Positions 4,130 through 61,850 of a stretch of DNA of 64,000 bases are shown here, piece by piece. This DNA is from Malacoraja senta (Eukaryota). A program made the translations under genes and the position numbers. The notes below the pieces were generated by a model, which saw nothing but the letters and a program-made list of their open reading frames with translations, searched no databases and had not been told where the DNA came from. The DNA is taken from positions 7,752,001 to 7,816,000 of the forward strand of contig CM075991.1 in assembly GCA_038087875.1 (NCBI GenBank), given 5' to 3'. Every line of letters starts with the position of its first letter. The first letter of the stretch is position 1.

Positions 4130-4597
4130 ATGAACTCTTACTTCCCCCCTTTCTCCCTCACCTTCCACCCCCTTCCCATTGCCTCACACGGACTCTCACC
4201 TATTTCCTCCCCCCCCCCCCAAAAATAACTTTCCTCCCTCTAGATTCACAATTCCCCACTGTTTAGTCCTGTCTCACACCCCTGTTTTTATCTATGGCCT
4301 TTGATCCAACCATCTGCCCATTAATTTCCCTCCTGTGATAAATACAGTTCTATTGTATCGTAAACACCCTCCTCATCTGTGTCCACTTATTACCTGTCAC
4401 GCTTTGTCCGGCCTCTCCCCTCTTCCAGATTTTTCTCTTCTCTTTCCCCCTCTCGCCCCCCCCCCCCCCAATCAGTAGGGTCTCGACCCGAAAGGTCACC
4501 TATCCATGTTCCCCAGAGATGCTGCCTGACCCGCCGAGTTACTCCAGCAATTGATGTCTTTTTGTGTATTAACCAGTATCTGCAGCTCATTCTTTCT
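4130..4597 (+). mobile_element. Penelope-derived 3' region / pLTR remnant
   Basis: Pyrimidine-rich tract, then gggtctcgacccgaaaggtcacc...ttactccagc...tctgcag as in the other copies. Confidence 0.65.
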
Positions 4598-5236
4598 ACT
4601 TTTGGGAGAAACCTTTTTGTATTTGCAGATATGACTGGATAGACAGCAACATTTCCTTGCTTGAACAATGGTCATATTTAACGCTGCATTTTCATAACTG
4701 GAAGGTTTTGGCAAATGAAAGGAGGAGGGAGGGAGTGGAGACTTCATTCATTATAAAAATATATGTTTTTGTATAAGCTTTTATTTTTGCCCCTAAGTTG
4801 TTGGCATTTTTTTTAACACGCCAGGAGCCTGCAGAAATGCAAGTTGAAATTTGCATGCACAGCACAGCTGTGATTGAGCATTTAGCCGGAATTGGATAAC
4901 TGTTAAGTTAAAACAAATTGCTGGCAGCGTTGCACATCACCATTTTAGCATGGATAATGTGAGAGAATGCAGATGCACTGAATTTGCCAGGCTGATCCAC
5001 AATTGCCATAATTGACTACTTTATTGATTTACTGACATATCCTCCCTCGCATCTGCCCTTCCCTCTTAGTCACTTCCATCTTGTCGCTGCCTTCCTCTGC
5101 GCAGGTTTGACAACTGCAATGCAAGAGCCTTGTCGTGTTTCTCTACTGAAAAAACTGGGATGTAGAGGGCGCGACGTGGGATTAATGAGGATTTAATTAA
5201 AGATGGTTCTGCAATGCAAAGCTGTTGTACCGACCC

Positions 5237-5850: not shown

Positions 5851-6069
5851 GAGACGAGGGAGGAGGTATGGGGACTTTTATCCTTTTGTTTGGATTTACT
5901 GACAATTGCCGTGAGATGGGATGTTGGTTTATTTTTTTTATTTTTTTCTCTCCCTCGTGCTTCCATTGCCCTGCCCCACAACTACTAATTCCAGCAGCGC
6001 ACACACACACGCACGCACGCACGCACGCGATTGATAAACGCCAAGGAGCAAGGCAGTCCCTCAGGACAT

Positions 6070-6520
6070 TGATTCAGATTCAAACTTTATTGTCATTGTG
6101 CAGTGTACAAATACAGAGACAACAAAATGTGGTTAGCATCTCACCCAGAAGTGCGAACACAGAATAATGGAACAGAAAAAAATATATATATATACGTATA
6201 TACAGTAGCAGTAATGCAATTTTCAGGGGGGGGGGGGGAAAGATCAGTCACTGGGGGAAGGAGTGTCCGGGGGGGGGGGGGGTGACTGGCAATCACCAAG
6301 GTGCAGAGTTAAGTAGGGTAACAGCCGCAGGGAAGTAGCTGTTCCTGAACCTGCTGGTCCGGGAATGGAGAGACCTGTAGCGCCTCCCGGATGGGAGGAG
6401 GGTAAACAGTCTGTGGTTGGGGTGAGAGCAGTCCTTGACGATGCTGCGCGCCCTTCGCAGACGTCGCTTGCTCTGGACAGACTCAATGGAGGGGAGTGAG
6501 GAACCGGTGATGCGTTGGCA
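6070..6520 (-). mobile_element. Rex1/Babar-type LINE 3' fragment
   Basis: Minus frame reads HPNHRLFTLLPSGRRYRSLHSRTSRFRNSYFPAAVTLLN, then AATAAA and a short-repeat tail. Confidence 0.8.
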
Positions 6521-40116: not shown

Positions 40117-41291
40117 CCCATTTATAGTTAGGCAGGTTTGAGGGGTGCAGAGGTTAAATTTCAGACGCTGCGAGTTCATAAATGAACAAGTGATAGGAGC
40201 AGAATTAGGCCATTCGGCCCATCATAGTTGCCTCCAGCCCCTCTAGCCTGGCACAGCGGACATGGTGGGGGTGCTGGCTGAGGAATTAATTCATCACAAT
40301 GTTTCAGGGCAAATCTGTCAGTCAGTCTCTGGTTCATTAGTCATAGGTGCAGAAGTAGGCAGTTCGGCCCATCGAGTCTACATGGCTGATTGGCTGGTCT
40401 ATCTTTCCCTCACAACACCCCTCCCCTCGTAACCCTTGACTGCATCTCTAAACTAAATTAAGCATAGATTGGAGTGAGACAATGTTCCTTCCCACAACAT
40501 CCTCCATTTGTAGAGATGCCTAACGGTTTGGGCAAAGCAGCAGGTTTTGAGGGAAAAAACCCCATGTATAAAGGAGAAGAGAGAAGTGGAGAGGTTTTAC
40601 GGAGTGCATTGCAGAGTTTGTGTCTGCCTATGGAGCAGCATTTAAAATTGGGGATGACCACGAAGCTGGAATTATGCCAGCGCATGTAATTGGGATGGTG
40701 TTAGACTAGACGAGAACATGGAGAAGGACTTTAAATGTAAATGTTCACTGATTTGGAAATGAGGTCTCCAAAATGGAAGCATTATTTGATGCAAGTGAAT
40801 GGACATTCGAGAGAAAATGCAAGCTGCAGACTGGTAAATGGCTTTGAGTTTGTAGAGAATAGAAGAAGTAGACAAACCCGCCCGTAATCCTCTTGAATAG
40901 GGCAGTCTAGAGCTGAAGGGGAACACTGTATAAGCCGACCCCTTCCTTTTCGCTCTGAACCAAGCTTTTGTGAACTTATTTACAGTGGAGAGTTGAGAAT
41001 GACTTTGAAGGAAATGCGATCTGATTACGTTCCTTTCTGTTTTTCTTCAATGGTTTTGGATGTTGACCAGCTTGCACTGATAGTCATTCCAAATTCATCA
41101 GACTAATAGCAAAATCAATTTCTCTTGCCTGGCATCTTGATTACTGAGTGGGTTTCTCAACTAATTCATTCACCTATAATCAGTAAAATATCCTATAGGA
41201 TTTTACTGATACCTGTGTAAAAGCAGGAGAGGTGATGAGCTGTGTAGGAAGGAACTGCAGATGCTGGTTGAAACCGAAGATGGGCACAAAA

Positions 41292-53205: not shown

Positions 53206-54260
53206 TCTCTGGGTGAAAATGTTTTTTCTCACTTCGGTCTTAAATGGCCTCCCTTTATTCTTAGACTGTGGCCCCCTGGTTCTGGACTCGCCCAACATTG
53301 GGAACATTTTTCCTGCATCTAGCTTGTCCAGTCCTTTTATAATTTTATATCTGTAAGATTCCCCCTCATCCTTCTAAACTCCAGTGAATACAAGCCTAGT
53401 CTTTTCAATCTTTCCTCATATGACAGTCCCGCCATCCCAGGGATCAATCTCGTGAACCTACGCTGCACTGCCTCAATCACAAGGATGTCCTTCCTCAAAT
53501 TAGGATGGTGAAAAGCTTGCCCCGCACAGCTCTTGAACTTTTCCCCTCTCGCCTTAAAGCTACGCCCTTTTTTTTCGCCATCTGGGGAATCTGGTTCTGA
53601 CTGCATGTCTCATAATTTTCTATAATTTCGAGATACAGCGCGGAAACTGGCCCTTCGGCCCACCGAGTCCAAGCCGGCCAGCGATCCCCGCACACTAACG
53701 CTATGCTACAAATACCAGGGACAATTTTACATTTCCACCAAGCCAATTAACCTACAAACCTGTTCGTCTTTGGAGTGTGGGGGAAAACCGAAGATCTCGG
53801 AGAAAGCCCACACAGGTCACTATGCTTAGCGAGACGTGACGAAATTGGTCCATTGAATCGTTGGCCTGCAGGAGAAATCTATCCCAGTGACTGAAGAAAT
53901 AACAATCGATAAAAAATCTGAAAAAAATATTATTTTTCATCGTGGCCAACTGTACGTAAGCCATTTACAGTATATTAATAAGTTTGTGTGTGTGTGGCAA
54001 TGCACACAAATAACAGGACGATGGTACTAGGATGAGTATTTGCTTCAGGGCACTTTATTATTTCACAGCGTTATTGGGACTCTCTGTGTCTGTTGCTTAA
54101 ATGGTGATCAGAACAGACTCTTGGGTGAAGACTCTTCTCTTTGAACTTTTTTTTGTTCATTATGTTATCTAGGAGTACTGTGTTTCACAGACCCCTGTTC
54201 CGCTGCTGCAAGTAAGAATTTCATTATGTGATTTTCGGCACATGTAGCAATTAAACACAA

Positions 54261-55810
54261 ATCCACAAACCTGACTGTCCCGGTAGACCCATTGTCTCTG
54301 CCTGTTCGTGCCCCACCGAACTCATCTCCACCTACCTCGACTCCATACTATCCCCCTTGGTTAAATCCCTCCCCACCTATGTTCAAGACACCTCAGACAC
54401 TCTCCGTCATCTCCGCGCATTCCACTCTCTAGGCCCTCACCCCCTCATCTTCACCATGGACGTCCAGTCACTGTACACCTCCATCCCCCACCAGGATGGT
54501 CTCAAAGCCCTCCGTTTTTTCCTCGACCGAAGAAGCAATCTATACCCGGCCACTGACACCCTCCTCCGCCTAGCGGAGCTGGTACTTACACTTAATAACT
54601 TTTCATTTGACTCCTCCCATTTCCTCCAAATACAAGGCGTAGCTATGGGCACACGCATGGGCCCCAGCTACGCCTGCCTCTTTGTCGGGTACGTAGAACA
54701 ATCCCTGTTCAATGCGTACCAGGGCCCCATCCCCGACCTCTACCTCCGCTACATCGATGATTGTTTTGGTGCCACATCCTGCACCCACACACAACTGACT
54801 GACTTCATCCGCTTCACCACCAACTTCCATCCGGCACTCAAATACACCTGGACCATTTCCGACACTTCCCTACCATTCCTTGACCTCACTATCTCCATCG
54901 CAGGTGATAGACTCCTTACCGACATCCACTACAAACCTACCGACTCCCATGGCTATCTGGACTACACTTCTTCCCACCCTGCTTCCTGTAAGGACTCCAT
55001 CCCCCACTCCCAATTCCTCCGTCTACGCCGCATCTGCTCCCAGGATGAGGCGTTCCACACCAGGGCATCTGAAATGTCCTCATTCTTCAGGGAACGGGGG
55101 TTCCCCTCCTCCACCATAGATGAGGCTCGCACCAGGGTCTCTGCCATACCCCGCAACACTGCTCTCTCTCCCCATCCCCCCACTCACAACAAAGGCAGAG
55201 TCCCCCTAGTCCTCACCTTTCACCCCACCAGCCGTCACATACAACAAGTGATCCTCCGTCAGTTTCGCCACCTCCAACGTGACCCCACCACTCGCCACAT
55301 CTTCCCATCTCCCCCTATGTCTGCCTTCCGCAAAGACCGCTCCCTCCGTAACTCCCTTGTCAATTCTTCCCTTCCCTCCCATACCACCCCCTCCCCTGGT
55401 ACTTTCCCTTGCAACCGCAAGAGATGCAACACTTGTCCCTTCACTTCCCCCCTCCACTCCATTCCAGGACCCAAGCAGTCGTTCCAGGTGCGACAGAGGT
55501 TCACCTGCATCTCCTCCAACCTCATCTATTGCATTCGCTGCTCTAGATGCCAGCTGATCTACATCGGTGAGACCAAGCGGAGGCTTGGCGATCGTTTCGC
55601 CGAACACCTCCGGTCGGTCCGCAATAACCAACCTGAACTCCCGGTGGCTCAGCACTTCAACTCCCCTCCCATTCCGTATCTGACCTCTCTGTCCTGGGTC
55701 TCCTCCATGGCCACAGCGAGCAACACCGTAAATTGGAGGAAATGCACCTCATATTCCGCTTGGGCAGTCTACATCCTGGTGGCCTGAACGTTGAATTCTC
55801 CCAATTCTGC
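54261..55810 (+). pseudogene. Penelope RT/GIY-YIG ORF, N-truncated, frameshift near 55665
   Basis: IHKPDCPGRPIVS, DVQSLYTSIP, GVAMG, RYIDD, LPFLD, CNTC, IYCIRC...YIGET. Confidence 0.9.
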
Positions 55811-61318: not shown

Positions 61319-61850
61319 TTGGGCAAACAGCTGAAGTTCCCACAGCACATCACAGCAACATCACTCCGGCCAGACATGATCGTCACCTCCGAAGTGACAA
61401 AACAGCTGATCATTCTGGCGCTGACAGTGCCCTGGGAAGAGCGTGTTGAAGAGGCTAACGAGAGGGAAGGCGCAAAGTACCAGGAACTGGTGGAGATGTG
61501 CCAGGACAGCGGCTGGAAGACATACAATGAGCCCGTAGAGGTGGGCTGTAGAGGCCTTGCAGGATGCTCACTCTGCAAAGTCCTCAACCAGTTGGGCATT
61601 GCGGGCTGGCAAAGAAGAGGGCCATTCAATCCGCAAGCGAAGCCGCGGAGAAAGCCGCTAGGTGGCTTTGGATTAAGACGGCTGATCCGTGGGCGGTTGC
61701 TGCTGGGACGCAAGTCGGGGCCTGATCAACCCCGGCTGGGTCGCCTGGGCGAGGGTGTCTGATGTTGTGAGACCCGAAACACCCGATGACCCCAGATCAC
61801 AGCACTGAGGATGCGTCCCAGCGGCATCTAGAAGATGTATCTTTCACACT
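61319..61850 (+). mobile_element. HERO-type (restriction-like endonuclease) non-LTR retrotransposon 3' end
   Basis: LRPDMIV...LTVPWEE...KYQEL...PVEVGCRG; after a frameshift near 61606 reads AEKAARWLWIK...*, stop at 61723-61725. Confidence 0.85.
61698..61826 (+). ncRNA. Candidate non-circularly permuted hammerhead ribozyme
   Basis: GGGTG-TC^ (61753-59), GACCC-GAAAC-ACCC (61771-84), ACAGCA-CTGAGGA (61799-811), plus 11-bp, 8-bp and 5-bp helices. Confidence 0.55.

Follow-up and report, generated by a model that had tools for sequence, protein, structure and literature searches.

A hammerhead-type module with rewired strands in a HERO-like LINE family, and a copy layout that suggests an RNA circle

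Hammerhead ribozymes of types I–III share the cyclic order NUH–CUGANGA–GAAA. The order site–GAAA–CUGANGA is that of type SGC of Eckert et al. (2023), which came from metatranscriptomes and for which cleavage was demonstrated (PMC10085705). CUGANGA and its adjoining stem strands are treated there as one indivisible block, known hammerheads having no more than 1–2 nt between CUGANGA and its stems, and core insertions of 1–2 nt only are described in PMC3088659. Among mobile elements, non-autonomous retrozymes are modelled in the literature as passing through a cycle of cutting, circularization and copying (PMC7761336, PMC7229834), a Penelope-like element offers a precedent for internal priming (PMC11167929), and the HERO clade of LINEs is mostly without a fixed target site (PMC4640811).

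The DNA analysed here is a stretch of 64,000 nucleotides, referred to as the window, for which an earlier note had proposed a hammerhead core at the 3' end of a LINE. The element concerned occupies one interval:

61320..61849, + strand: 5'-truncated, frameshifted RLE-type non-LTR retrotransposon copy (endonuclease end plus 3' module), with boundaries taken from 29 other copies

This 530-bp copy is a dead, HERO-like LINE that ends in a hammerhead-type 3' module, its reading frame being shifted near 61607. The repeat is dispersed: a 31-base motif from the window copy gave 199 exact matches. Longer copies carry one ORF with reverse transcriptase (RT), CCHC zinc knuckle and PD..D/E endonuclease (RVT_1 in relatives; motifs by alignment), the C-terminal 267 residues of which are 61% identical to a Tetraodon polyprotein and at most 82% identical to other bony-fish proteins; RT, CCHC, PD..D and the 61% identity are the basis on which the relatedness of 61320–61849 was judged. 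Q7T1J8, which we take to be a HERO-clade protein, is close to the family ORF. The 3' flanks differ among the 29 copies, indicating no fixed target site, a feature expected of the HERO clade, and the family's ORF layout fits that clade as far as a comparison with the description in PMC4640811 goes. Across the endonuclease region, identity to several bony-fish proteins is 77–82% (P0001 against P0003–P0014 and P0123), high for a host that is probably a cartilaginous fish, to judge from a skate protein of 91% identity, and this resemblance suggests horizontal transfer. One copy (L035, reverse strand) is flanked by a 174-bp direct repeat, 96.6% alike, at 4456–4629 and 6009–6182, which would be an unusually long target duplication, if it is one. 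Elsewhere in the window, at 54255–55787, lies a 510-residue ORF resembling a Penelope-type RT with a GIY-YIG-like end (assigned by eye).

The 3' module of the window copy is made up of the following parts.

61702..61712, + strand: helix A, 5' strand; pairs with 61812–61822
61713..61737, + strand: hairpin B (61713–61720 with 61730–61737); the family stop codon, 61723–61725, lies in its loop
61738..61742, + strand: stem II strand, beginning at G10.1; pairs with 61771–61775; 93.2% paired, double changes in 5 of 5 pairs
61744..61749, + strand: pseudoknot helix that links stems I and II at their far ends; pairs with 61791–61796; 86.9% paired, double changes in 5 of 6 pairs
61753..61758, + strand: stem III 5' strand, ending at U16.1; pairs with 61779–61784
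61759, + strand: N17; by analogy, the cut is predicted 3' of this base
61760..61765, + strand: stem I 5' strand; pairs with 61799–61804; 93.5% paired, double changes in 6 of 6 pairs
61771..61784, + strand: block G, comprising a stem II strand, G12-A13-A14, A15.1 and the stem III 3' strand
61791..61796, + strand: pseudoknot helix 3' strand; 61796 is A or G, each in about half of copies
61799..61811, + strand: stem I 3' strand plus CUGANGA (61805–61811)
61812..61822, + strand: helix A 3' strand, immediately following A9, at the place where known hammerheads begin stem II
61824..61838, + strand: terminal hairpin D, lying about 11 nt short of the 3' end of the element; candidate start signal for reverse transcription

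The strands that the earlier note had read from the letters are all present: stem III, C17 at 61759, GAAA at 61776–61779 and CUGAGGA at 61805–61811, together with the complementarities 61738–61742/61771–61775, 61702–61712/61812–61822, 61713–61720/61730–61737 and 61745–61749/61791–61795. Stem I (61760–61765/61799–61804) has five of its six pairs in the window copy, again as described. The exception is G at 61802, which is T in 27 of 29 genomic copies (L020 left out), so stem I is perfect in the family. No unpaired bases separate helix A, hairpin B and stem II in the window, an arrangement in which stem II may stack on the core and helix A on hairpin B. The module region folds with z = −3.79, 1 of 200 shuffles folding as well, and an Rfam scan of the window module and eight related loci returned no hammerhead match. 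Hairpin B encloses the ORF stop in the family frame, as had been noted, but the window copy is frameshifted and the placement is not conserved among relatives; a link between stop codon and hairpin was therefore rejected. Copies run past hairpin D, ending about 90 nt 3' of the predicted site.

Relatives were fetched by protein alone, so they were not chosen by motif; the best 80 of 279 metagenome stretches gave 79 loci. A parser that demanded CUGANGA, GAA and stems I and III, and that searched the order site–GAAA–CUGANGA only, found the core in 49 of the 79 loci and in the window (n = 50), all in that order. Invariance of CUGANGA and GAA in the alignment follows from this selection. A15.1 and U16.1 are each present in 50/50 modules, and N17, which the parser left unconstrained, is C in 18, A in 15, U in 17 and G in none. 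Hammerhead cleavage sites obey the NUH rule, with which this pattern agrees. Since the stop codon precedes the core in 48 of 50 modules, conservation of the core is not due to coding, and coding constraint was rejected as the cause.

Forty-two of these sequences, with protein identities of 31–81%, were aligned by sequence alone, leaving out five near-duplicates, two truncated modules and one module with longer spacing. Stems I to III, together with the I–II pseudoknot, are 91.6% paired in this alignment, with double changes in 21 of 23 pairs, a pairing score that 0 of 500 shuffles reached; slid controls were 36–45% paired. On the protein tree the minimum number of independent Watson–Crick switches is 30 for stem II, 38 for the pseudoknot, 33 for stem III and 52 for stem I. 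The pair G10.1–C11.1 occurs in 31 of 41 sequences and is G–U in five. Among 28 sequences picked for similar spacing, pairing in helices A and B amounts to 83.6%, and each of their 16 pairs shows double changes; helix A beats its own shuffles at p ≤ 0.05 in 28 of 43 sequences, and hairpin B is missing or replaced in some relatives (L180, L213, L218). Covariation shows the structure of the module, which is read here from sequence comparison. The central claim of the earlier note, that an RLE LINE ends 3' in a hammerhead core whose order is non-circular, is borne out: the core is conserved, and in the aligned 3' ends the stems covary and the catalytic letters are kept while the stems around them vary.

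A covariance model matched 62 of the 79 loci at E < 0.01, all on the coding strand; 21 of these lie outside the training set, some of them near-duplicates. The core is damaged in 7 of the 62 (five G12 changes at CpG, one deletion, one double change). Most of the 17 loci that the model did not match end early: 11 contigs stop within 150 nt of the ORF end, one ORF is truncated, one locus breaks off just past the site and one has an internal deletion. In two others the 3' DNA is short, at 302 and 495 nt, and these loci resemble L196, in which the module sits 720 nt downstream. This leaves L171 as the one unmatched locus that lacks a module despite ample 3' DNA. The distance from ORF end to site is about 180–720 nt in L188, L194, L196, L207, L200 and L210, which keep the same module. 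As a control, the loose parser was run on 479 other windows and passed 13; of these, four have NUH and A15.1 and may be second modules. Eighty viral stretches chosen for the same core words (80 of 100 examined) scored at most 17.8 bits, against 62 for the window copy, with a 4-bp stem I in only three of the 80; no protein relative was found in the viral contigs, and we regard these low-scoring matches as chance look-alikes. A model match at window 40227–40296 was also set aside, being weak (E 0.21) and without core words.

These strands are not connected as in hammerheads of types I, II or III. The order site–GAAA–CUGANGA departs from their cyclic order and has the blocks S, G and C in the succession of type SGC; the core letters of a hammerhead are present and stems I–III covary. 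The chain is also broken between A9 and G10.1, the G10.1 strand (61738) having moved upstream. The gap after A9 is bridged by helix A, and hairpin B sits between helix A and stem II, giving a four-way junction. A textbook direct stem II, formed by the strand after CUGANGA and the strand before GAAA, was tried and rejected: it is 46.7% paired, a value equalled or exceeded by 37 of 500 shuffles, and reaches 4 bp in 1 of 50 modules, against 48 of 50 for the rewired stem II. The pseudoknot, which the earlier note had listed as a possible addition, does exist but is not optional, since it covaries and occupies the place of the helix through which stems I and II interact; from its connectivity, it probably provides the stem I–II tertiary contact. 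Block C, uninterrupted in type SGC, is interrupted in the module. To judge from the alignments, then, the module behaves as an SGC hammerhead yet lacks one defining feature of that type. It is very probably a self-cleaving hammerhead.

The SGC order itself is already published. The novelty lies in the CUGANGA block being broken internally, in the four-way junction and in the presence of the module in a eukaryotic retrotransposon that is autonomous. Weinberg (2015) is reportedly cited for hammerhead variants with additional helices and could be a precedent. Within the open literature, which was the scope of the search, we found no link between HERO-type LINEs and a hammerhead and no hammerhead opened after A9; nor is there such a report in the excerpts of PMC10162972, PMC13725137, PMC13580325, PMC7650587, PMC2684134 or a 2026 bioRxiv ribozyme screen that includes zebrafish.

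We then turned to how copies lie in the genome, taking the 5' region of the element as anchor. This region gave 119 matches, of which 100 loci were examined and 97 kept after removal of three duplicates. In 77 of the 97 the copy begins inside a copy of the 3' module lying directly upstream, head-to-tail, with a uniform junction. The upstream modules vary in length and reach at most 286 nt past the site. The 5' end reaches the site in 31 copies, of which 27 continue past it and four stop within −4 to +1 (1.9 expected, p = 0.13). A pile-up of 5' ends at one unit length was apparent at first and is not significant (21 against 15.3 expected, p = 0.10). A hard 5' stop at the site was likewise rejected, as three non-family letters precede it in only 1 of 199 exact matches. 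Looking in the other direction, 1 of 216 exact matches ending at the site continues with three non-family letters, which is a 1-nt deletion, and copies made from the 5' cleavage product were found nowhere among these matches. The family hexamer follows 77 of 79 occurrences of the site, and the other two differ by one substitution (overlapping loci kept). The earlier note had remarked that the window copy keeps sequence on both sides of the site; this proves to be the rule for the whole family and, with the head-to-tail copies, is the main clue to the mechanism.

One full-length coding copy (L221) has a whole module at each end with a period of 3739. At distant loci carrying the 5' motif by a strict pattern, the module precedes it in 9 of 9, in metagenome assemblies that can collapse repeats. 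The head-to-tail joint also occurs in contigs of runs X1, guessed to be RNA, X2, probably DNA, and X19. A contig of X1 begins at the first base after the site, and the metagenome contigs L158 and L161 stop precisely at the site. As the ends of an RNA cannot be read from those of a contig, none of these observations was counted as support. No long tandem arrays were seen among the fetched loci. In addition, L156:85-7266 holds two related elements, 68% alike, head-to-tail and each with its own module, which may be a real heterologous tandem or an assembly chimera, and L224, L225 and L226 hold rearranged short units clustered within a few kb, some in opposite orientation.

Most matches to the 5' region appear to belong to a 535-nt non-autonomous deletion derivative that consists of the 5' region and the 3' module and has its own tail variant:

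L037-L040, L071-L140, L327-L353: loci of the 535-nt derivative

None of the 28 scored dispersed ORF-end copies has the short element's tail type, and the short units carry short-type tails upstream. Separately, the 5' region shows four tandem short hairpins with purine-rich loops and a UGAC-like linker before each, conserved between distant elements:

L086:1477-1570, L141:3361-3454, L154, L155, L156, L159, L160, L163, L169: loci with the 5' hairpin array
L180, L195, L144, L152, L182: further loci with the array

Double changes occur in 12 of its 19 predicted pairs (13 sequences), and an Rfam search gave no match; the array could bind protein, act as an internal promoter or signal cap-independent translation.

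The two ends of a copy proved to be related. At 37 two-module loci there are 11 cases of a minority letter shared between the ends, where shuffles give 2.4 (p = 0.0003), in a test that left out position 61796, and the shared letters lie on both sides of the site; hence both ends come from one event. Core changes are present at both ends of three loci: C3 in L127, A13 in L136 and G12 (CpG) in L085. Some templates with damaged cores were therefore copied, which under a cycle of cutting would need gene conversion or cleavage in trans. Position 61796, which is A or G about half and half in long and short elements alike and G in distant relatives, faces C at the end of the pseudoknot helix. In 8 of 30 loci the letter at one end is not that at the other, where the background at non-CpG positions is 146/3023; RNA editing, template switching or a mutation hot spot are possible causes.

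The layout of the copies suggests an RNA circle as the element's template, made possible by the cut. Our best reading, which we hold with slightly more belief than doubt, is that the cut monomer is rejoined and reverse-transcribed for more than one round, in the manner of a retrozyme but autonomously. A genomic copy with a module at each end would be transcribed through and its RNA cut at both sites. The two ends of the unit-length RNA would then be joined to each other, most simply giving a circle, through a host ligase or through the ribozyme itself. Priming of reverse transcription by the element's protein would be internal, at hairpin D some 90 nt 3' of the site, and copying would run round for up to more than one unit, rebuilding the module at both ends of the insertion. 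If both modules are cut and priming lies 90 nt from the monomer's 5' end, only 90 nt of cDNA can result unless the ends are rejoined, whereas a circular template yields insertions such as those observed, which have their 3' end fixed, their sites intact, a length above one unit and two ends that match. The 535-nt derivative would use the same cycle, making the pair an autonomous retrozyme with its own non-autonomous passenger. A role in RT recognition, which the earlier note had offered as an option for the module, more likely falls to the separate hairpin 3' of the ribozyme.

Several observations count against this reading. A single circle predicts identical ends, from which the discordance at 61796 in 8 of the 30 loci, L109 among them, departs. 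We also count against it that 5' ends show no significant excess at the site or at unit length, that helix A beats its shuffles in 28 of 43 sequences, that hairpin B has gaps among relatives and that PMC10085705 sets a limit of 1–2 nt. The discordance, the damaged cores and the combinations of 61722 and 61796 fit template jumping, multimeric templates, gene conversion or an edited site, and some of this evidence fits template jumping better than a circle.

Template jumping, which we consider unlikely though deserving of weight, would keep an active ribozyme and exact ends and dispense with covalent closure. The RT would prime 90 nt from the monomer's 5' end and cross the cut to the same or another RNA, the 3' end of the same RNA being held by stems I and III. 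Read-through at the site, shared letters (from jumps within an RNA) and discordant 61796 (from jumps to another) would then be covered together. Positions 61722 and 61796 flank the site, and each of their four combinations is represented among dispersed copies, as jumping would allow; the head-to-tail elements of L156, only 68% alike, would find a place, unless that locus is an assembly chimera. Against jumping, no letters are gained or lost at the site in the 79 occurrences described above, the two ends of L109 differ at 61796 yet share two private letters, one of them 2 nt away, and the short element's tail type is absent from all 28 scored ORF-end copies.

Rather less probable is that uncut, multimeric read-through transcripts of tandem loci are the templates and that the ribozyme cuts only a fraction of the RNA, either giving it a defined 5' end for translation, like the 5' ribozymes of R2 and RTE elements, or removing the priming hairpin from the mRNA and so limiting transposition. 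Ribozymes at the 5' end that process LINE RNA and aid translation have been described (PMC7761336), and published SGC ribozymes are slow, at 0.007–0.19 per min (PMC10085705). Separate repeats within one RNA could differ at 61796, and damaged cores at both ends would need no cleavage. Multimers of this kind sit poorly with the fetched loci, which lack long arrays and whose upstream modules end within 286 nt of the site. Moreover, in the absence of a monomer step the upstream part could only shorten with each round, and private letters would not be copied to both ends.

We think it improbable to a marked degree that the fold is non-catalytic, a protein-binding or RT-recognition structure descended from a hammerhead or mimicking one. 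Genomic copies do bear no clear mark at the site, and a break after A9 lies outside known hammerhead variation, but the conserved letters are exactly the catalytic set, the surrounding stems vary freely across 31–81% protein identity and N17 is never G. Self-targeting, in which new 5'-truncated copies insert at the 5' end of older ones and the ribozyme is unrelated, would give the same layout and accommodate the heterologous L156, and is nevertheless disfavoured to the point of being barely credible, given that the two ends share private letters (p = 0.0003) and tail type and that short units have short-type upstream tails while all 28 scored dispersed ORF-end copies have the other type.

To return to copying from a rejoined monomer, its broadest form would be that a whole clade of autonomous animal LINEs passes through a covalently closed RNA circle of about 3.7 kb, made by the newly wired hammerhead, translated, and reverse-transcribed in rolling-circle fashion by internal priming. 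This wider proposal we put forward tentatively, at a little short of even belief. If circles are involved, a LINE clade would not follow the standard rule that a linear RNA is primed at its 3' end, and a protein-coding, viroid-like retrotransposon cycle would exist in vertebrate genomes with a natural helper–passenger pair. Circular templates being stable, such a cycle would be relevant to retrotransposon biology and to tools for RNA-templated gene insertion.

Other consequences concern the fold itself. The hammerhead fold would extend past the six block orders proposed in 2023, its 'indivisible' core segment being split and held by a four-way junction. This wiring escapes Rfam scans, and it places a non-circularly permuted, predicted ribozyme of less than 130 nt in animal genomes. 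A retrozyme-like passenger and its helper are identified together in one genome. Bouneau et al. (2003) are said to have reported a tandem-structured Tetraodon non-LTR element, presumably Zebulon, with protein Q7T1J8. A tandem layout is thus not new for a pufferfish LINE; its link to a ribozyme appears to be, and offers a testable account of that layout.

Among known ribozymes, the closest are the type-SGC RNAs, HRIMA-1 and its variants (PMC10085705). They have the same order and the same core letters as the module, with two crossing stems, a short linker that joins the stem I strand to the stem II strand and a helix that ties stems I and II together. Whereas their block C was assumed to be uninterruptible, that of the module is opened after A9, with helices A and B spanning the gap; whereas they come from metatranscriptomes and not from the genomes of known organisms, the module belongs to an autonomous animal retrotransposon; and whereas they are proven to cleave, cleavage by the module is a prediction. 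The HDV-like and twister ribozymes of R2, RTE and other LINEs resemble the module as self-cleaving RNAs of autonomous LINEs, but they are of another class, lie at the 5' end and mark the start of a full-length copy, where copies of the present family run through the site (PMC7761336).

Among mobile elements, HERO-clade LINEs share with the family a single ORF with RT, CCHC and PD..D endonuclease and the lack of a strict target site (PMC4640811). Penelope-like elements share partial tandem copies, pseudo-LTRs, a hammerhead in the repeat and a proposed internal start of reverse transcription, but combine a telomerase-like RT and GIY-YIG endonuclease with minimal type I hammerheads, whereas the family has a LINE RT, a restriction-like endonuclease and a full, rewired SGC core (PMC11167929, PMC7761336). 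Retrozymes, like the family, form tandem or partial tandem units bounded by hammerheads, and the cycle proposed for them gives cDNA of more than one unit; they are non-coding, with type I or III hammerheads and helpers that are only proposed (PMC7761336, PMC7229834). The family's 3739-nt unit, by contrast, encodes its own RT and endonuclease, so that the main element is neither non-coding nor non-autonomous, and only its 535-nt passenger, a deletion derivative, fits the retrozyme in that respect.
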